64,000 nucleotides of DNA, taken from contig CAYQFV010000002.1 of NCBI GenBank assembly GCA_964416845.1, positions 4,525 through 68,524 on the forward strand. Direction: 5' to 3'. Under the pieces are notes generated by a model. That model had not been told where the DNA came from. It saw only the letters and a program-made list of their open reading frames with translations, and searched no databases. Of this stretch, positions 38,559 to 46,245 are shown piece by piece. A program made the position numbers and the translations under genes. The stretch comes from an uncultured Phycisphaeraceae bacterium (GTDB lineage: Bacteria > Planctomycetota > Phycisphaerae > UBA1845). The stretch's first letter is position 1. Each line of letters opens with the position of its first letter.

Positions 38559-39479
38559 TCAGTGACGTCCACCTTGCGACCCACCGACTTCGTGCTTGCG
38601 CAGAATCTCATCAATCCGTGTCCGCACCACCGGACCAACCCGACACAACGGAAGACGAAACTCCTCCGACAGCAAGCCTTGCATCGCCATGGCTGTCTTG
38701 ATCGGCACCGGGTTCGACCCGCACGATCCAAGCTCCGTCGCCAGCGTGCAAATCCGATGGTGCAATCTCCGCGCAGCAACCGGATCGCGATCCACAGTGT
38801 CGACCAACGCTTTCATGCGCTTGGGAACAAGGTTGGACAATACGCTGATCACGCCGATCGCACCCATCGCCATCAAAGGCAGTGTCAACCGGTCGTCACC
38901 GCAGATCACACCGATATCGCTGCGCGAAAGGAGCTCGTCGATACGATCCACGCCACCGCTCGCATCTTTCAACGCCACCACGTGCTTGTATCGATCGCGC
39001 AAACGCATCACGGTTTCGTTTGCAAGATCAACGCCGCATCGCGCGGGCACGTTGTACAACACGATGGGCAGGTTGACGGCTTGGGCGACGGCGGAGTAGT
39101 GCTCAAACAACCCCGCCTGCTCGGGACGATTGTAATACGGGGTCACGACCAACACGCCGTCCGCCCCGACGGCAGCAGCATGCCGGGCCAACTCGACCGC
39201 TGTTCGGGTGCAGTTCGACCCTGCACCCGCCAGCACCTTACACCGACCGGCGACACGTTTGACCACCGTCTCAACAATTCGGCCATGCTCCGACTGCGAA
39301 AGCGTCGCGCTTTCTCCGGTCGTTCCACACGGCACGACACCATCGACGCCGCTCTCGACTTGGCGCTCGACGAGCCGATCAAGCGCAGGCCAATCGATTT
39401 CACCATCCAGAAACGGAGTCACCAGCGCCGTGTGAACGCCCGAGAATCGCTCCGAAACTCGTTCCGCTGGCATGATCAC
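38559..39479 (-). CDS. dapA: 4-hydroxy-tetrahydrodipicolinate synthase
   Basis: TALVTPF, VPCGTTGESATLS, VVTPYYNRP, LYNVP, and the Schiff-base lysine block VALKDASG. Confidence 0.9.
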   Translation of the reverse strand: MIMPAERVSERFSGVHTALVTPFLDGEIDWPALDRLVERQVESGVDGVVPCGTTGESATLSQSEHGRIVETVVKRVAGRCKVLAGAGSNCTRTAVELARHAAAVGADGVLVVTPYYNRPEQAGLFEHYSAVAQAVNLPIVLYNVPARCGVDLANETVMRLRDRYKHVVALKDASGGVDRIDELLSRSDIGVICGDDRLTLPLMAMGAIGVISVLSNLVPKRMKALVDTVDRDPVAARRLHHRICTLATELGSCGSNPVPIKTAMAMQGLLSEEFRLPLCRVGPVVRTRIDEILRKHEVGGSQGGRH

Positions 39480-40729
39480 GGCTGGGCTTCCTTGCTTGCC
39501 ACCAACCGCAAGTCAATCGTGACGTCCATCGCTCTGGGCGTGCGTGCGATGATCGCCACCGCGCCGTCGTGATATTGAACGCGCGACAACAGTTGCGTCT
39601 CGAACGACTCACGAAGCTCCGGTTCGGGCGGATGATCCGCAAGCTCGCGCCGAAAACGCATGATCGCCGAAAACGCCCGATTCTTCGTTTCGATCCGGTC
39701 GGCCAGCGCGACCACCGCTTCCGCCATCGCCACCGGCCGGGCTTCCGCCAGATTGTAACCGCTCCGCAGCACGTCCGCCGGAACGACCGTGGGCTTTCGC
39801 CGAGCCCCCGGCGATGAAATGCTCAACGCGCCACCCGGGAAATGATCCACCGTCAGCATCATCCGGCAGTACGTCGCGACCGCGAACGACTCGCGAAACG
39901 CAGCCTGCCTCTTGCCGGTGAACAACGGCAGTGCAAACCCGCGCAACGTCAACCGCAACATCGTGTCGCCGATGCCGTTTACTTCGACCGTTCCCACGCT
40001 GGACGACGCCGAACGCGCTGACCAGTCGACCTTGATCCGAACGTCGATCGGTTCCAGCTGAAAGGCATCCATCACCAGTTTCGCCGCAACGGACTGCGAC
40101 AGCGGCGACGGCGTTAGCCCGTCGCGCTTGGTCAGGTCAGTCGGGTGGCCTTCGTCTTGTAACTTGACCAGCGAGGCGTACCAGTCGAGCACGTCCGCGC
40201 CGTTCTCCTTCGCCGCAGCCACAATCGCCTCGGCAATCTTGGCGATCGCTTGATCGTACTGCGTGACCATGAAGATGTTCTTCTTGCTCACCGTTGGAAG
40301 CGGCGGCGTGAGGACGAACGCTCTCGCACCCAAGTCGCGACATTTCTTCAACATCGTCGCCATGTTCGCAGCAGCCATCGATGCTCGTGCGGGACTCTCA
40401 CCCTTCAAATCGCCATCGCCCAACCCGCAACAGATCACAACCGTTGTCGGACGAAGCGGTGCGACCAGCTCGTCAAAACGGGCAGCAGCCTCGCCCGTCT
40501 TGGCCAGATTCGGGCCAGGCAGCGCGACCTGCCAGAACTTCGCTCTCGATTCGGGATACTTCGCGCGGACGAAATTCTCAACCATCGTGCCGAACCCGTC
40601 GGGATACACGAGCGAATCGCCGTAGAAGACGATGCGCTCCTCGCCGACGATGTTTAGTTGGGCGACGGACGCCCGTGCAGTCAACAGCACAGCCGCCGAC
40701 ATGATCGCGAGCCTCGCGATGTTTGTCAT
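39476..40729 (-). CDS. SGNH/GDSL-family hydrolase-like exported protein
   Basis: Signal peptide MTNIARLAIMSAAVLLTARASVA. Block I is IVFYGDSL, followed later by VVICCGLGDG. It has a long uncharacterised C-terminal half. Start and stop overlap neighbouring genes by 4 nt, which suggests an operon. Confidence 0.6.
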   Translation of the reverse strand: MTNIARLAIMSAAVLLTARASVAQLNIVGEERIVFYGDSLVYPDGFGTMVENFVRAKYPESRAKFWQVALPGPNLAKTGEAAARFDELVAPLRPTTVVICCGLGDGDLKGESPARASMAAANMATMLKKCRDLGARAFVLTPPLPTVSKKNIFMVTQYDQAIAKIAEAIVAAAKENGADVLDWYASLVKLQDEGHPTDLTKRDGLTPSPLSQSVAAKLVMDAFQLEPIDVRIKVDWSARSASSSVGTVEVNGIGDTMLRLTLRGFALPLFTGKRQAAFRESFAVATYCRMMLTVDHFPGGALSISSPGARRKPTVVPADVLRSGYNLAEARPVAMAEAVVALADRIETKNRAFSAIMRFRRELADHPPEPELRESFETQLLSRVQYHDGAVAIIARTPRAMDVTIDLRLVASKEAQP

Positions 40730-41466
40730 GATGTTGTTCCTCGAGATGCGTGTAGATCCAGAAGCGCCTTCATGGAGCGAACCGCCTCGCGCATCCCCAC
40801 AAAAACCGCCCGCGACACGATCGAATGTCCAATGTTGAATTCACAAAACCCGTCCATCGCTGCCACGCGGGACACGTTGCGGTAGGTCAGCCCGTGGCCG
40901 CCATGAACCACCAATCCGTCGCGCCTGCCCGTGTCAACGGCGCTGGCAAGGGACTCCAACGCTGTTGCAATCTCCGCGTCGTTGCGAGCATTCGCATATC
41001 CCCCGGTCCACAACTCGATCGCGTCGAAACCTGCTTCGGCACACGCGTGGATCTGATCAGCCGCCGGCTCGATGAACGCGCTCACACTGCTGCCACAATC
41101 GTGCAGGCGCTTGACGACGTCGGCCACGCGCTCTCCCAAACCGACCACGTCCAACCCCCCCTCGGTGGTCAGTTCCTCCCGGCGCTCGGGAACCAACGAC
41201 GCTTGCGCCGGCGATAGCGAGCATGCGATCGCGACGATCTCCGTCGCGATCGACATTTCCATATTCAACTTCACCGACACCGTTTCACGGAGCAAACGCG
41301 CATCGGTGTCGTTGATGTGACGGCGATCCTCGCGAAGATGGAAGGTAATTCCGTCCGCCCCGCCCAATTCCGCCTCGACAGCCGCCCAAACCGGGCTTGG
41401 CTCATCCGTCCCTCGAGCCTGCCGGACAGTGGCTACGTGGTCAATGTTGACGCCCAATCGAACCAT
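40726..41466 (-). CDS. pdxJ: Pyridoxine 5'-phosphate synthase
   Basis: MVRLGVNIDHVATVRQARG, ITFHLREDRRHI and IELWTGGYA are PdxJ signature blocks. Confidence 0.9.
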   Translation of the reverse strand: MVRLGVNIDHVATVRQARGTDEPSPVWAAVEAELGGADGITFHLREDRRHINDTDARLLRETVSVKLNMEMSIATEIVAIACSLSPAQASLVPERREELTTEGGLDVVGLGERVADVVKRLHDCGSSVSAFIEPAADQIHACAEAGFDAIELWTGGYANARNDAEIATALESLASAVDTGRRDGLVVHGGHGLTYRNVSRVAAMDGFCEFNIGHSIVSRAVFVGMREAVRSMKALLDLHASRGTTS

Positions 41467-41541
41467 GCACCGCCTCCGCTCCCTGACCGAACAGGCATTA
41501 TAGATGCGCGAGTCGGGCTGTAAATGAAATCGGGAGGCCGG

Positions 41542-41868
41542 TCAGCAATCCGGTTCGGTGGTCACCGAGAGGCTGAACGTTGCGAATTGTTCACAATACA
41601 GCTCCGCCCGCTCCCGATGCGTCACCAGAAGAAGCGCAACATCGGTATCGTGAGCCTCAAGCATGATCTCGATCGCTTCTTCAACCGAAAGCGGTGTCAA
41701 GCGGAAGATAACGTCGACGACATGGAGCATGTCGTTCTCGTCGTCGTTGTGCAGGAGAACACGATACGGAGGCAAAATTCCAGGGCGAGGGACAGCCTTG
41801 ACCGGCGCAACCGCGACGCCCTCTCCTTCCGACGCTGACCCTTGATGTGCAGGATTCTCAAGCACCAT
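41542..41868 (-). CDS. clpS: ATP-dependent Clp protease adaptor ClpS
   Basis: The ATG at 41868 gives MVLENP.... The core YRVLLHNDDENDMLHVVDVIFRL...EAIEIMLEAHDTDVALL matches ClpS. Confidence 0.85.
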   Translation of the reverse strand: MVLENPAHQGSASEGEGVAVAPVKAVPRPGILPPYRVLLHNDDENDMLHVVDVIFRLTPLSVEEAIEIMLEAHDTDVALLLVTHRERAELYCEQFATFSLSVTTEPDC

Positions 41869-42022
41869 CGTCACCTCAACCCGTAGCATACCCGGCCACC
41901 CCGAGAAGCGCCAAGGCCTTTTTTTGACCGACAAACAGCCTCTCCCAGGCAATCCGCGGGTGAGCGATTCACGCCTCGGGAGGCCAATTCCGCCGCCCCC
42001 CCAAAAAAACCGATTTTATCGC

Positions 42023-42054
42023 TTGACCTTCAAGCTAACTCTAAGGTGTAGAAT
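42023..42054 (+). promoter_or_regulatory. MerR-type metal-responsive promoter/operator (long spacer with dyad)
   Basis: TTGACC (42023-42028), a 20-nt spacer, then TAGAAT (42049-42054). The imperfect dyad ACCTTCAAG ... CTCTAAGGT spans the spacer and overlaps the -35. This is the architecture of CueR/ZntR/CadR/MerR-controlled promoters. The first in-frame ATG (42064) is 10 nt after the -10, which implies a very short leader. Confidence 0.6.
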
Positions 42055-42063
42055 GTGAGTGAG

Positions 42064-42498
42064 ATGACAATGAAGACACGAACAGCCCAGTTGATGACGA
42101 TCGGCGAGGTGGCCCGTATGGCGAGTGTGGCGACGCCCACGCTGCGGTACTACGAGCAGGAGGGTCTCCTTTCTCCGACCACGCGGAGCCGAGCAGGCTA
42201 CCGTCTTTACAATGCCGAAGCGGTCGAACAGTTGCGGTTCATCCGCTCCGCACAGGCAGTGGGATTCACCCTCGACGACATCCGCACGCTCGCCCGGCTC
42301 GAAGGAGAGAGTGGCAAGACTTGCAAAGCGGAAGTAAGGCGGCTGCTGGGGCAACGGCTTGCGGAAGTCAACGACAAGATGAAGGATTTGAAACGCGTTC
42401 AGCAGGCATTGGGGCAAGCCCTGGACCGTTGTCAACGCTCGAATGGCGAGTGCAAGGTACTGAAGGAAATCCGCCCCACAAGACAAAGAAGGAGATGA
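42064..42498 (+). CDS. MerR-family metal-sensing transcriptional regulator (CadR/PbrR/ZntR-like)
   Basis: HTH MTIGEVARMASVATPTLRYYEQEGLL...GYRLY, then a coiled-coil dimerisation helix. There is a Cys at the helix start (GKTCKAEV) and a C-terminal C-x6-C (DRCQRSNGECKV). The start could be 42055 (GTG), 42064, 42070 or 42094. Confidence 0.85.
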   Translation: MTMKTRTAQLMTIGEVARMASVATPTLRYYEQEGLLSPTTRSRAGYRLYNAEAVEQLRFIRSAQAVGFTLDDIRTLARLEGESGKTCKAEVRRLLGQRLAEVNDKMKDLKRVQQALGQALDRCQRSNGECKVLKEIRPTRQRRR

Positions 42499-42833
42499 TG
42501 ATGGTGACAAGACGATGGACGCTGTCCGCCCTGGCGGTGGCGATGCTTGGTGTCGCTGCGCTTGGAGCGGTGAGACTGGCCGCCGCCGACTCGGGGCGAG
42601 CGGACTGCCCTGGCAAGATCGTCTGCCCACAAACGGGCAAGCTCATCTGCCGGGACAAGTGTCAGATGATTGACCAGAATCGCCCGGACTGCCCCGGTCG
42701 AGTCGTGTGCCCGCTCACGGGAAAGCTTGTGTGCAAGGATCGGTGCCCTCTCGGCGACACGGCGACGAAGAAAGGCGACGCGAAAAACGCAGATGCGAAG
42801 GACAAGCCGGCGTGCTGTCGGAAAGGCAAATGA
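42495..42833 (+). CDS. Small exported protein with duplicated four-Cys repeat (putative periplasmic metal-binding; unknown family)
   Basis: The start ATGATGATG overlaps the regulator's TGA. Signal: MMMVTRRWTLSALAVAMLGVAALGAVRLAAA|DSG, with a Tat-like RR. Two 28-aa-spaced repeats follow: DCPGKIVCPQTGKLICRDKC and DCPGRVVCPLTGKLVCKDRC. The tail is Lys-rich and ends ACCRKGK. Confidence 0.65.
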   Translation: MMMVTRRWTLSALAVAMLGVAALGAVRLAAADSGRADCPGKIVCPQTGKLICRDKCQMIDQNRPDCPGRVVCPLTGKLVCKDRCPLGDTATKKGDAKNADAKDKPACCRKGK

Positions 42834-43309
42834 CGGCTGACTGTTCCAAGGACGACCTCATTGCGGAAAGCGCGCCGCAAAGGGGCCGTCCGGGTTGGCT
42901 GCAAACGCTGATCGCCATCCCGGCGGCGGTGCTGCCACTATTGCCGAGTTTTTCGTGCCCGGTATGCGTCGCAGCCTACGCGGGCTTGCTCTCGTCGCTG
43001 GGTTTGGGCTTCCTTCTCACCGATCGCGTGCAGAGGCCCATGATCGTTGCGTTCCTGGTTGTTTCGGTGGCCAGCGTGGCCTGGACTGCGAGGCAATATA
43101 AGCGGACCGGACCGTTGGTACTTGTCCTTGTTGGCTCCGCCGGGATCGTCGCGGGACGCCTCGTGTGGAGCGTAGCACCAGCGCTGTACGCTGGCGCGCT
43201 CTGCCTTGTGACGGGCACCGTTTGGAACCTGATACTGAAGCGGCCGCGGACGAAACTTGTCACGCTGACCGTCGCGGATACCGCGCACACGAGGGGCCCG
43301 AGTTCATGA
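42830..43309 (+). CDS. MerC-like heavy-metal transport membrane protein
   Basis: The ATG at 42830 overlaps the previous TGA (ATGA). There are four hydrophobic helices. The first carries SCPVCVAAYAGLLSSLGLGFL, which is comparable to the MerC CxxC helix ending ...IGLGFL. Confidence 0.55.
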   Translation: MTADCSKDDLIAESAPQRGRPGWLQTLIAIPAAVLPLLPSFSCPVCVAAYAGLLSSLGLGFLLTDRVQRPMIVAFLVVSVASVAWTARQYKRTGPLVLVLVGSAGIVAGRLVWSVAPALYAGALCLVTGTVWNLILKRPRTKLVTLTVADTAHTRGPSS

Positions 43310-43389: not shown

Positions 43390-46245
43390 TCACCCGCCGA
43401 TGTCGGCGCTTAGGATGCGCACGATGTCGGCGCGACTCATTGTGCCGGCTCCGGGGTGGGAATTCTCCTTCAACTCGTTGCCTTGCTCGTCGATGAAGCG
43501 GTCCAACTGCTGTACGTCGACGAATACCCTGGTCGCGCCGCTGGCCCCCACGGTCGTCAGCAACGTCGGTTGAACCGGATCGGTCACGTCGATGACTTGC
43601 AGCCCGACGACACTGTTGGCCACTAGAGCGTAGTCGTCGACTCCCGGCGGTGCCATCTGGCTGGCGACGTCGACATCATTCGCGCTGCCACCGAGGTCCG
43701 AGATCGCAGCAACTTGGACGACGTTGTCAGGCTCGGTGATATCGTAGACGCGTAGGCCATTCGTCCCGGCGACGACATAAAGGTAGTCGTGCTCGCGCGA
43801 AGGCGTCGAACCGGCCGCCTCGAGGAAGTGGGTGTAGGTGTCCAAACCGGACGCTCCGGAAAGCTCAAGCCCACCGACCAGCTTCGGCGACGAGAATTCC
43901 GGCAGGAGATCAACAATACGCACGCCGAAATCCGGATCAGCCACATACGCCCTCGCGGCAAACGCCGGCCCCTTTTGATGATGGGCGTAAAGCGCTACGT
44001 CCGCTGCGTTCATGCCTGCCAGCGTGCCGGCGATGCGCGGTTCGTTGTGGTCCGAGATGTCGACGACCACCAACCCCGCGTCGCCCGCCGCGACGAACAG
44101 ATGGATGCCCCATGGAACAGCTCGGACAGCCGTGGGGATCGACACCGATGCGACCAACTCCGCCGACGTGGGATTGGCATTGTCATAGATGTTGACGCCT
44201 TCACCGGCGATCACGACGTAGAGATATCGTGCGGCGAAGCTGACGTCGATGGCGTTGATATTGTTGACTACCGTGGCAGCGGCGGTCGGCATGCCGTCTG
44301 TCATGTCAAAGATCGACAATCCGTCGCTACCGGACGCAACGTAGAGATAGTCTGCCTTTCCAGAGACCACGTTCGCACGAGAAGCCACCGCTCGCGGCGA
44401 CCCGGCGGCAAGCGTGGCGAGCAATACCGGGTTCGCAGGATCGGTATTGCGGTCGAACACGCGGATGCCATCGCTTGCCACTACGTAAGCGTCGTCGCGC
44501 GCGAGTGAATAGTTCCCCGAACCAAGCCCCAACGACGGCGGCGATCGGTGACACTCAACGCAGGTGCGCACCTCGTCACGCCCGCGGATCGTGTGCGGCT
44601 GGACCGGCTGGAGCGCCAGGCCGGACAATCCGTTGACCGTTTCGGGCATGACGAAATCGAGCTTCTTGCTGCCGTCGGCAGCGGTCACGTCTGCAATGGG
44701 TTGGCAGCCGACGATGTACGGCGAGACCTTCCCTTGGGCGTTCATGCCCATCGCGAAGTGCTTCAGGGACACGAACACCTTGTTTCCTGTGCTTGCTTTC
44801 CCCAACTCCTCCTCTCGCGTGATCAGATTGAGACCTGTGAGAGTTTCGTCGCGTTGAAAATGACAACCGAAGCAGTTGGGCATCCATGAAGCGTGGCACG
44901 CGTAACACTCCAGACCACCCTGCACCTTGAGATGGTTCTCGTTCATGGCTGCTGCTGCTTTGGCGTTGTATCGATTGGACTCGGGATTGACGACGTCCAT
45001 CACCTGAGGCACGACATGGGCCGCCCCGTTGACTTTGGACGTCAGGATGACGTCGCCGTCGCCGGTTCGCTCGACATTGCCAAGCGAGTTGCCATCTCGA
45101 TCGGTCAGCGTACCCGGCGCATCGGGGAGCCCGTGGCAGGTGCGACATTCGACCTTGGTCGCCTGATCCATGTGCCCATAGATGTTGCCGTCGCCCATCA
45201 CGCCGGCCTGCGTGTGGCAATCGATGCACGCCATGTTTCGTTCGCCATGAAGATCTTGTGGGTTCGTCTCGGCATCCGCGTAGTGATAGTTGCCGTTGAA
45301 CTTGACATCGGTCGTGCCCGCCACATCGGGTCCGGAGGGCAGTCGCGGTGGCATTTGAGACCGGCCTGAGAAGCTAAGACCAATGCGGGCACCGCGATGA
45401 TGGCAGTGGGCACACTGTGTTGAAGGGATCACGCGTGTGATCTGATGGATAACCGGGTGCCCCTGCTCGGTGTGATCGATGGACGTGTCCGCACTGCCTG
45501 ATCGACCGTCGTTGTCGTACACCATGTGACAGGCGGCGCAGCCGTCAGCGCGATAGGTCCCATCTGCCCCCTCAGCCCCACGATATCCCTTGCCCCGCGA
45601 CCAGAGATGGCAGCGGGCGCAAACTTGGCCTGGGACCGCGCGGTAGTGCGTGGCGAACTCGGCTTGGTCGAGCGATGGGTCGTACTTGATCAGGTCGATC
45701 AACTCGTCGACGGCGCCCGCTTCGGTCGGCACGTCGCCATCCTCATCGCGCACGGCAAAGTTTCCGTACACCGGCGTCTTGCTGTCCGTGACACCGTTTT
45801 GGTACAGACCGCCCGCGTAATGACCGGCCCCGGTGGCCATCAGGCCCTTGAGTATCCAGTCCACGTGTGGAACGTGACACTTGCCGCACGTCTCGCGCAC
45901 GACACGAAGGTTCGACGGGTTGACGAATTGCTGATACGGCAGGTCGTAGTCGAGCGGCGGCGTGGTCTTGTCCATGATGACCGGCAGCGTCGGCTGAACA
46001 TGGGCGCTCGCCATTTCCGCCGACGAAAAGTCTCCGCCGTGACAATCAGTGCAGTCGATCGACGCGTTGGCGTGAATGTCTTCGATCTTGTCATGACACT
46101 CGAGGCAACCAGGGTTGCTCTTCGTGAACGTCTTCGGGGGTGTCGTCGGCTCGAACGAACAACCAGCCACCACCATCACAAAACCTGTCATCGCCACAAT
46201 GCGAACGAACGAAACCATGGTCGACCTGCAGCCTGCGGTGTTCAT
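43390..46245 (-). CDS. Undecaheme c-type cytochrome lipoprotein fused to LVIVD-repeat beta-propeller-like domain
   Basis: 951 aa. Lipobox VMVVAGCS. Eleven CxxCH motifs: CLECH, CTDCH, CGKCH, CARCH, CAACH, CAHCH, CIDCH, CRTCH, CYACH, CFGCH, CVECH. The C-terminal ~370 aa contain about six repeats of the YLYVAxGxxGLxIxDxxxP type (e.g. DYLYVASGSDGLSIFDMTD, HLFVAAGDAGLVVVDISDHNEP, DYLYVVAGTNGLRVYDITEPDN). Confidence 0.8.
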   Translation of the reverse strand: MNTAGCRSTMVSFVRIVAMTGFVMVVAGCSFEPTTPPKTFTKSNPGCLECHDKIEDIHANASIDCTDCHGGDFSSAEMASAHVQPTLPVIMDKTTPPLDYDLPYQQFVNPSNLRVVRETCGKCHVPHVDWILKGLMATGAGHYAGGLYQNGVTDSKTPVYGNFAVRDEDGDVPTEAGAVDELIDLIKYDPSLDQAEFATHYRAVPGQVCARCHLWSRGKGYRGAEGADGTYRADGCAACHMVYDNDGRSGSADTSIDHTEQGHPVIHQITRVIPSTQCAHCHHRGARIGLSFSGRSQMPPRLPSGPDVAGTTDVKFNGNYHYADAETNPQDLHGERNMACIDCHTQAGVMGDGNIYGHMDQATKVECRTCHGLPDAPGTLTDRDGNSLGNVERTGDGDVILTSKVNGAAHVVPQVMDVVNPESNRYNAKAAAAMNENHLKVQGGLECYACHASWMPNCFGCHFQRDETLTGLNLITREEELGKASTGNKVFVSLKHFAMGMNAQGKVSPYIVGCQPIADVTAADGSKKLDFVMPETVNGLSGLALQPVQPHTIRGRDEVRTCVECHRSPPSLGLGSGNYSLARDDAYVVASDGIRVFDRNTDPANPVLLATLAAGSPRAVASRANVVSGKADYLYVASGSDGLSIFDMTDGMPTAAATVVNNINAIDVSFAARYLYVVIAGEGVNIYDNANPTSAELVASVSIPTAVRAVPWGIHLFVAAGDAGLVVVDISDHNEPRIAGTLAGMNAADVALYAHHQKGPAFAARAYVADPDFGVRIVDLLPEFSSPKLVGGLELSGASGLDTYTHFLEAAGSTPSREHDYLYVVAGTNGLRVYDITEPDNVVQVAAISDLGGSANDVDVASQMAPPGVDDYALVANSVVGLQVIDVTDPVQPTLLTTVGASGATRVFVDVQQLDRFIDEQGNELKENSHPGAGTMSRADIVRILSADIGG

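Follow-up and report, generated by a model that had tools for sequence, protein, structure and literature searches.

A putative soft-metal-binding family of exported cysteine-rich proteins in MerR-controlled cassettes of Planctomycetota

The 64,000-nucleotide stretch of contig CAYQFV010000002.1 analyzed here (the window), from an uncultured Phycisphaeraceae bacterium, contains a gene for a small cysteine (Cys)-rich protein at 42495–42833 (+), which is the middle gene of a merR-like/Cys-rich/merC-like operon. We consider it probable, though well short of assured, that the product is a metal-induced, Sec-exported, thiolate-rich protein that binds soft metals. The gene is genuine and conserved, purifying selection acts on it, and its product belongs to an unnamed, apparently undescribed family of exported Cys-rich proteins, a putative non-homologous thiolate binder in a MerR-controlled cassette. 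On the best reading of the available comparisons, the protein may fill the slot of MerP functionally, as an analog and not a homolog of MerP.

Architecture and conservation of the Cys-rich protein

The open reading frame (ORF) begins with three consecutive ATG codons (42495, 42498, and 42501) and ends with TGA at 42831–42833, which gives a product of 112 residues if translation begins at 42495; 42498 and 42501 are also possible start positions. A 111-residue form of the protein is held in JGI/IMG and a 110-residue member of its 90% cluster in NCBI, both nameless. The N-terminus reads MMMVTRRWTLSALAVAMLGVAALGAVRLAAA|DSG..., and inspection identified residues 1–31 (42495–42587) as a signal peptide with cleavage predicted before D32, composed of the n-region MMMVTRR, the h-region WTLSALAVAMLGVAALGAV with a 19-residue hydrophobic core, and the c-region RLAAA. 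It is followed by two units of four Cys residues each (Cys4 units), unit 1 (RADCPGKIVCPQTGKLICRDKCQMIDQN, 42597–42680, containing C38, C44, C52, and C56) and unit 2 (RPDCPGRVVCPLTGKLVCKDRCPLGDTA, 42681–42764, containing C66, C72, C80, and C84), at an offset of exactly 28 residues (84 nt). The 28-residue unit has the pattern R-x-DCPGKIVCPxTGxLxCxDxC, within which the Cys residues are spaced C-x5-C, C-x7-C, and C-x3-C. The remaining segment (42765–42830) is a low-complexity tail of Lys, Asp, and Ala with a P-x-C-C end (C-terminus ...DKPACCRKGK; CC codons at 42813–42818), and its C107 and C108 bring the number of Cys residues to ten. The mature protein is 12% Cys and possesses no His, Phe, Tyr, or Trp. 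The original prediction had described an ORF with a signal sequence, two Cys4 units 28 residues apart, a tail, and ten Cys residues, and direct reading bears this out. The repeat itself also stands, and only its description as "near-identical" was slightly generous: the units have the same residue at 16 of 28 positions (within the DCPG...C core, 14 of 20 positions agree and the six that differ are conservative exchanges) and the same nucleotide at 50 of 84, and the duplication is therefore old and not recent. In unit 1 of the window, residues 56–58 (42660–42668) read C-Q-M, in contrast to the C-P-T or C-P-x found in over 90% of relatives; the Pro following the fourth Cys is nearly invariant in relatives, and this lineage-specific substitution is held in common with the closest relative, P0001.

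A word-indexed search of 5.8 billion proteins retrieved 267 homologs, all annotated as "hypothetical" and without a Pfam domain, and an HMMER profile run exhaustively against 1.84 billion cluster representatives retrieved only 172 of them at E ≤ 1e-3, almost all of 50–130 residues. In a 36-sequence alignment, all ten Cys residues are invariant, together with R35, P39, G40, K41, P45, T47, D54, R63, D65, G68, G76, and D82. The ratio of nonsynonymous to synonymous substitution rates (dN/dS) of the gene against its close homologs was 0.11–0.26, with dS saturated or near-saturated. Conservation had been put forward in the original prediction as a check on the idea, and the recurrence of the architecture in 267 homologs with these ten Cys residues and this dN/dS is far beyond chance. 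The family varies in the number of its units and in its tail. Member statistics rest on 210 N-terminally complete members, of which 95 carry one unit, 113 carry two, and 2 carry three; the CC pair of the tail is present in 190, tail length and sequence vary, and about 10% of members lack CC. Minimal members consist of a signal peptide and one unit without the CC tail, and so the unit alone appears to be functional.

The 67 loci found in a scan of species-representative genomes belong nearly all to uncultured Planctomycetota or Phycisphaerae, the outlying taxon labels being Vicinamibacteraceae, Acidobacteria, Armatimonadota, and Fervidibacter, one each. No family gene was found on plasmids by tblastn against 72,556 PLSDB plasmids. 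The Fervidibacter-type members (L073, 4213–4413; L074, 7875–8078) have 66–67 residues, one unit, and no tail; their unit has C-R-C-C-C-P in place of C-x3-C, and the C-terminal region of the partner regulator is also atypical. Two copies are degenerate. One (L034, 8001–8360) has an in-frame stop ahead of unit 1 and a Cys-to-Ser change in unit 2, and the other (L072, 7860–8180) has no recognizable start or signal peptide and a broken CC pair. Selenocysteine variants were considered and rejected, as the stop in L034 does not fall at a Cys codon and the same copy carries the Cys-to-Ser change; both copies are likely pseudogenes or sequencing or assembly errors and not selenoproteins.

Pfam, NCBIfam, and PDB sequence searches with the Cys-rich protein gave no significant match, a PDB search with a 100-sequence family profile gave nothing, and no published description of the family was found in a full-text literature search. 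The sole Pfam signal was a sub-threshold EGF-like domain (E = 0.0054, 17 bits against a cut-off of 27). The repeat, which the first reading of the sequence had not recognized, thus matches no known non-metal domain above threshold. Two AlphaFold runs, one fed with 36 full-length sequences and the other with 100 sequences of the mature region, gave predicted local distance difference test (pLDDT) scores of 55.8 and 55.6, respectively. Each unit was modeled reproducibly as a β-hairpin (KIV/KLI and RVV/KLV; pLDDT ~65–72), with strands E41–43 and E50–52 in unit 1 and E69–71 and E78–80 in unit 2, and the tail was modeled as disordered (pLDDT <50). A Foldseek search of the model (pLDDT ~56) against the PDB found nothing. 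Structure prediction, which had been suggested at the outset, thus returned only low-confidence β-hairpins; such poor confidence is compatible with a fold that may need metal or disulfides, and it proves nothing.

The predicted route of export was assigned from the signal peptides. By inspection, the usual features of a Sec signal peptide were found, namely a positive n-region, a hydrophobic h-region, and small residues at −3/−1 or a lipobox. An A-x-A-type cleavage site is kept in the family alignment, and a lipobox (such as L-T-G-C) replaces it in nine members, which still places the Cys-rich protein outside the cytoplasm. The T-R-R-W-T-L sequence and the AAA|D site noted in the original prediction are both present in the window. 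In contrast, its Tat-like reading is not sustained by the family, in which RR occurs in 68 of the 210 n-regions, only 13 fit a strict [ST]RRx(hydrophobic)(hydrophobic) motif, and many members begin with MKK... or have no basic pair. Tat export was accordingly rejected, and the protein is probably exported by Sec. A Sec-type route also makes it less likely that the protein carries a cofactor inserted in the cytoplasm, for instance an Fe-S cluster.

The operon and its counterparts in related loci

The gene upstream of the Cys-rich gene encodes a MerR-family regulator of 142 residues from the ATG at 42070 (42070–42498, +), with in-frame alternative starts at GTG 42055 and ATG 42064; the 142-residue form is present in NCBI, nameless. 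Pfam assigns MerR_1 (1.6e-20) and MerR-DNA-bind (1e-15), and the MerR model also matches, consistent with the helix-turn-helix and dimerization helix of the protein. The regulator possesses a Cys triad, C90, C126, and C133 (numbered from 42055; spacing C-x35-C-x6-C), and its best PDB relatives are CadR (6jgv, 1.5e-20), then MerR (5crl) and PbrR (5gpe); in the alignment to CadR, the three Cys residues fall on C77, C112, and C119. In 2003, Changela et al. reportedly described Cys at position 77 as the signature of MerR sensors for divalent metals, with Ser in its place in the CueR-type sensors of monovalent metals. The divalent-metal sensor named in the original prediction is thus backed by the three-Cys pattern and by CadR as the best solved relative. 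The NCBIfam ZntR, CueR, MerR, and CadR models scored ~95–109 bits, all under their equivalog cut-offs, so that these models assign no metal to the regulator.

A predicted MerR-type promoter/operator lies at 42023–42054 (+), with a −35 element TTGACC (42023–42028), a 20-nt spacer, and a −10 element TAGAAT (42049–42054). The spacer region contains the imperfect dyad ACCTTCAAG-N4-CTCTAAGGT (42026–42047). The consensus TTGACCTTACA-N6-TGTAAGGTGTAnAAT with identical 20-nt spacing occurs upstream of the merR homolog in more than 30 related loci, where the conserved promoter takes the form TTGACC-20 nt-TAnAAT plus the dyad. A scan for promoters with 16–18-nt spacers returned nothing at this site, as expected from an over-long spacer of the MerR type. 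The −10 element stands only 9 and 15 nt before the candidate merR ATG codons at 42064 and 42070, and the operon is therefore probably transcribed with little or no leader; at the corresponding position, more distant homologs have a GGAGGTG Shine-Dalgarno sequence.

Downstream, a MerC-family membrane protein of 159 residues is encoded at 42830–43309 (+). It matches Pfam MerC (PF03203, 1e-09) at 39.3 bits against a cut-off of 27.6, and NCBIfam MerC equivalogs at 19–20 bits against cut-offs of 140–170, scores so far under the cut-off that the protein is a distant member of MerC. Its first hydrophobic segment contains a CxxC motif (CPVC, in S-C-P-V-C). The position of the gene between a MerR sensor and a MerC-like permease was therefore read correctly from the start. 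The merR stop and the Cys-rich start overlap in ATGA (42495–42498), as do the Cys-rich stop and the merC start (42830–42833), which indicates that the three genes are packed for translational coupling. The merR-like, Cys-rich, and merC-like genes form a co-transcribed, self-contained operon, and the cassette is compact, with promoter/operator, sensor, candidate binder, and importer in ~1.3 kb.

For comparison, the window was analyzed together with 74 related loci, of which the scan of species-representative genomes had supplied 67; ORFs were called, 75 family genes were identified by a profile hidden Markov model, and neighbors were classed by BLAST, Pfam, and NCBIfam. Among the 62 non-redundant loci with enough upstream sequence, 49 have a MerR-family gene directly upstream on the same strand, and several further loci contain a divergently oriented one close by. 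A thiol-based metal transporter was found within 3 kb downstream in 31 of 61 loci; 10 of these have MerC, an ortholog of the window protein directly downstream of the family gene, and 21 have MerT-like proteins. The latter carry a C-terminal HMA domain and a CC pair in the first transmembrane segment (TM1) and resemble the NCBIfam MerTP fusion (under cut-off), and the N-terminus of the MerT-like partners has a zf_CopZ domain or a DF/thioredoxin-like domain. As the other 30 loci lack such a transporter, the minimal conserved module is the sensor together with the Cys-rich protein. Since no related locus has the same flanking genes as the window, the three genes behave as one portable unit that is complete in itself. 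This synteny is relevant to the possibility that the secreted protein, knotted by disulfides, serves as a toxin, a signal, or a structural peptide, has nothing to do with metal, and lies beside these neighbors by chance. Its small size, Cys content, and export, as well as the sub-threshold EGF-like match, would suit such a peptide; however, the association with MerR in 49 of 62 loci despite otherwise unrelated flanks, the translational coupling of the genes, and the existence of fusions to HMA domains make it a most improbable explanation.

One locus links the family directly with a mercury operon. In L059, from a seawater Planctomycetaceae metagenome-assembled genome, the segment 7352–10490 contains merR, a one-unit family gene, merA, and merT-HMA; the MerA passes TIGR02053 (551.6 bits against a cut-off of 454.45) and ends with ...KLSCCAT. 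It is the only true MerA among the 74 related loci, and the MerA-like proteins of L034 and L041 are PRK06370 oxidoreductases without a C-terminal CC. A link to mercury methylation was considered and rejected, as the HgcA cap-helix motif is absent from the window and from every related locus. In the wider neighborhoods, CzcB-like/RND efflux components recur in 12–14 loci, outer-membrane factors (OEP) in 8, P1B ATPases in 5, and a MetA/phenol-degradation-type outer-membrane protein in 5; these neighborhoods are metal-resistance islands. None of these components was found in the window. An outer-membrane-type protein of ~290–310 residues is encoded just downstream of the cassette in L009 (1813–2691), L011 (640–1557), and L072 (8385–9320), and also in L026 (2572–3423) and L061 (8361–9161). 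It has a weak Pfam Phenol_MetA_deg match and no NCBIfam match, and may be an outer-membrane channel of the same system.

The transporters could also be taken to indicate an uptake chaperone that hands scarce periplasmic Cu or Zn, as essential metals, to MerC/MerT importers for cytoplasmic use. MerC and MerT are importers, MerA is absent from nearly all loci, and the partners carry cytoplasmic zf_CopZ and HMA domains, all of which would accord with uptake. On the other hand, metal-sensing MerR-family regulators turn genes on at metal excess, the neighbors are efflux systems (RND/CzcB-like pumps and P1B ATPases), and one locus has MerA, so that an uptake role is regarded as unlikely.

Several fusion proteins contain the unit. 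P0148 consists of a signal peptide, two units, and a Pfam HMA domain. P0218 and P0234 consist of a signal peptide, one unit plus CC, a CxxC segment recognized by inspection and not by Pfam, and Pfam HMA and Thioredoxin_3 domains; P0234 has, in addition, a YHS-like segment seen by inspection only and not reported by Pfam. The HMA fusions tie the unit to extracytoplasmic metal-binding domains. A further longer exported protein with Cys4 unit(s), P0233, has no Pfam match. The CxxC segment and Thioredoxin_3 domain of P0218 and P0234, a DsbD-C-like thioredoxin gene that recurs near some loci, and the N-terminal DF/thioredoxin-like domain of L005-type partners raise the alternative of a periplasmic thiol-disulfide redox protein, whose Cys4 units would alternate between dithiol and disulfide states so as to mend or shield periplasmic thiols during metal or oxidant stress, with reducing power from MerC/MerT-like or thioredoxin-like partners. 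This alternative has little probability in our judgment: the known chemistry of MerC, MerT, and HMA partners is metal ligand exchange and not electron transfer, the regulators carry the Cys triads of metal sites, both the HMA fusions and the MerA of L059 indicate a role with metal, and the spacings C-x5-C, C-x7-C, and C-x3-C are unlike the CxxC of thiol oxidoreductases.

The gene order of the window also permits a different kind of role, in translation. A small Sec-type ORF with Cys motifs that precedes a metal-homeostasis gene immediately and overlaps it is also seen in CutF–CutO, as described in the paper that defines the CutF family (PMC9973294). In a CutF-like nascent-chain sensor, metal would slow co-translational export and thereby control translation of the overlapping merC-like gene, and the mature protein would have no role. 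We rate this as very unlikely. The junction (42770–42880) has a folding z-score of −0.69 against shuffled sequences and so no stem-loop above controls of the kind that, in a CutF-like sensor, would mask the downstream ribosome-binding site, the C-terminus ...KPACCRKGK lacks a proline-rich stalling motif, and almost half of the loci (30 of 61) have no MerC or MerT-type gene downstream that could be so controlled. Moreover, the one to three strongly conserved units, the lipoprotein forms, and the HMA fusions imply a stable mature protein.

The partner regulators fall into three classes: the first, which includes the window, is CadR-like, with Cys77 and C-x6-C; the second, which includes the MerA locus L059, is MerR/PbrR-like, with Cys77 and C-x8-C; and the small third class is CueR-like, with Ser, Ala, or Asn at position 77 and a ...CC loop. 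The third class includes L070, L071, and, by family clustering, L067, which adjoin a P1B ATPase; that of L071, the only one of this class scanned, is CopA-like. In L070/L071 (5082–8156) and L067, the family member is a one-unit lipoprotein, the regulator has Ser or Asn at the position of CueR S77, and the P1B ATPase is transcribed divergently, which suggests that this subgroup is a Cu(I)-handling branch of the family. Since sensors of differing selectivity have recruited the Cys-rich protein, a generic soft-metal binder fits better than a strictly mercury-specific one.

In the window, the cassette lies among housekeeping genes, with dapA, a GDSL hydrolase gene, pdxJ, and clpS upstream and a multihaem cytochrome gene downstream (38559–43309 region). 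GC content is flat across the region, and no obvious mobility genes were seen near the cassette. The gene at 43390–46245 (−), which converges on the merC-like gene, encodes a 951-residue protein with many CxxCH haem motifs and LVIVD β-propeller repeats, with Pfam matches to Cytochrom_c3_2 and Cytochrome_C7; it is a large, probably extracytoplasmic, multihaem cytochrome.

Proposed role and its standing

Based on the architecture of the protein and its genomic context, a possible mechanism is proposed for the operon. The cytoplasmic three-Cys MerR-family sensor would bind the dyad within the over-long 20-bp spacer and, upon encountering a thiophilic metal, activate the operon. The Cys-rich protein would then be exported, with cleavage of the signal peptide after AAA. 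In the periplasm, the 28-residue Cys4 hairpin units and the flexible vicinal Cys-Cys tail may catch metal by thiolate ligation. Where a MerC or MerT/MerP-type protein is co-encoded, as in the window, the metal could pass to its TM1 CxxC/CC by ligand exchange and so out of the periplasm. Where no transporter partner is present, as in about half of the loci, the Cys-rich protein could act as a periplasmic buffer or sponge. A small exported protein together with a MerR-family gene and a MerT/MerC importer, the combination expected of a MerP-like role, was found. The involvement of an exported thiol-rich protein in metal handling, as originally suggested, thus gains support from the MerR and MerC/MerT synteny, the MerA of L059, and the HMA fusions. 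As a rough division for the subgroup of the window, Hg(II) is the leading candidate at slightly less than an even chance, Cd, Pb, or Zn form a substantial second group, and Cu, Ag, or Au on the one hand and any other metal on the other are each unlikely.

Several points weigh against this reading. The binding of metal is predicted from genomic context, as are the ligands, the hand-off, and the identity of the metal. The AlphaFold models are of low confidence (pLDDT 56) and match no known fold. The periplasm is oxidizing, so that the eight Cys residues of the units could instead pair into four disulfides with no more than a structural, stiffening role. Metal specificity appears split, with CadR-like, MerR/PbrR-like, and CueR-like loops among the regulators, and 30 of 61 loci have no MerC or MerT-type partner within 3 kb downstream. 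The active-site motif of MerA is absent from the 64-kb window and from all related loci except L059, and without MerA, it is hard to see where Hg(II) or Cd(II) brought in by MerC would be detoxified. Finally, all family members come from metagenome-assembled genomes, and hence their expression is putative.

A further proposal, which we advance tentatively and with more doubt than confidence, is that the 28-residue unit R-x-DCPGKIVCPxTGxLxCxDxCP is an unrecognized minimal Cys4 metal-binding fold and that the family constitutes an exported "periplasmic metallothionein", a generic soft-metal trap recruited by CadR-, MerR-, and CueR-like sensors. We know of no dedicated class of such exported proteins. 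If this were true, Planctomycetota could tolerate Hg, Cd, or Cu independently of MerA, by sequestration in their enlarged periplasm. The family also bears on the ways in which Planctomycetota of sediments, the subsurface, and hydrothermal sites withstand mercury and cadmium. MerA is rare in this phylum, with one entry for Planctomycetes in a survey of mer genes (PMC8261052). The cassettes also raise the question of what role MerC or MerT importers have where no reductase exists. If the family binds metal, the unit would be a 28-residue candidate metal-binding module, maybe useful for biosensing or bioremediation.

Comparison with known systems

Handling of thiophilic metals in the periplasm is known mainly through the HMA-fold protein MerP and the Met/His-rich proteins CusF, SilE, and PcoE, to which the family, if it binds metal, would add a non-homologous, purely thiolate, repeat-built solution. 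The closest functional likeness is to MerP: both are small exported proteins in a MerR-controlled operon beside MerT/MerC, with presumed capture of metal by Cys thiolates and hand-off to the Cys pair of TM1, and in L059 the family gene lies between merR and merA, the promoter-proximal slot of canonical merT/merP. However, the family lacks the GMTCxxC motif and, in the low-confidence model (pLDDT ~56), the ferredoxin-like fold, and instead has one to three Cys4 units and a CC tail; many of its partner transporters already carry an HMA domain of their own, and MerA is usually absent. The HMA profile PF00403 gave no match to the Cys-rich protein even at E ≤ 1, and a six-frame regular-expression scan of the window found no GM[TSHDM]CxxC. 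HMA/MerP identity, which the original prediction had already discounted, was thus rejected, the predicted structure being two hairpins with a disordered tail. The cassette differs from the canonical mer operon in that the window has no MerA motif and the 74 related loci have one MerA.

With CadR/MerR/PbrR operons, the window has in common the Cys triad and C-x6-C loop of the regulator, which match CadR, and an over-long spacer with an inner dyad. The known CadR/ZntR/PbrR regulons drive efflux ATPases, whereas the present operon encodes an exported Cys-rich protein and an importer-type MerC, and merR itself heads the transcript, overlapping the next gene at ATGA.

The family also resembles the metallothioneins SmtA/BmtA and MymT in being a putative small, Cys-rich buffer of soft metals, and the mature window protein, like metallothioneins, has no aromatic residues or His. 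With the copper-storage protein Csp1 it would have in common that the thiolate store is exported. SmtA, BmtA, and MymT, however, stay in the cytoplasm under the control of regulators of the ArsR/SmtB or other types, and Csp1 is a Tat-exported four-helix bundle with 13 Cys residues. In contrast, the family has Sec-type signal peptides, predicted β-hairpins, and units that repeat regularly, and its sequence matches none of these proteins. Identity as an SmtA/BmtA-type metallothionein was rejected, given the lack of a profile match, the presence of a signal peptide, the absence of His, and a Cys pattern unlike the Cys9His2-type cluster motifs.

A motif echo exists with TRASH/YHS domains: the family sequence CP[LV]TG...C-x-D-x-C recalls CPVTG...C(C)KDC of YHS proteins found near some loci, and both end with C-x3-C. 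The echo is real, but TRASH/YHS has C-x19-22-C-x3-C where the family has C-x7-C-x3-C, a spacing ~15 residues shorter, with an extra N-terminal Cys. Comparison of the family by hhalign with YHS segments from neighboring genes, a weak test given a template profile of only 4 sequences, gave a probability of 0.9% in global mode and 24.5% in local mode over 9 columns, which is not significant, and there is no Pfam YHS match; the likeness is therefore taken as a resemblance only.

The last likeness concerns the vicinal Cys pair. The C-terminal vicinal Cys pair of MerA lies on a flexible tail that fetches Hg(II), and MerT has its CC in TM1. The Cys-Cys of the family likewise stands near the end of a predicted flexible tail, as at the C-terminus of MerA, but it is borne by a small exported protein and not by an enzyme, and about one member in ten does without it.

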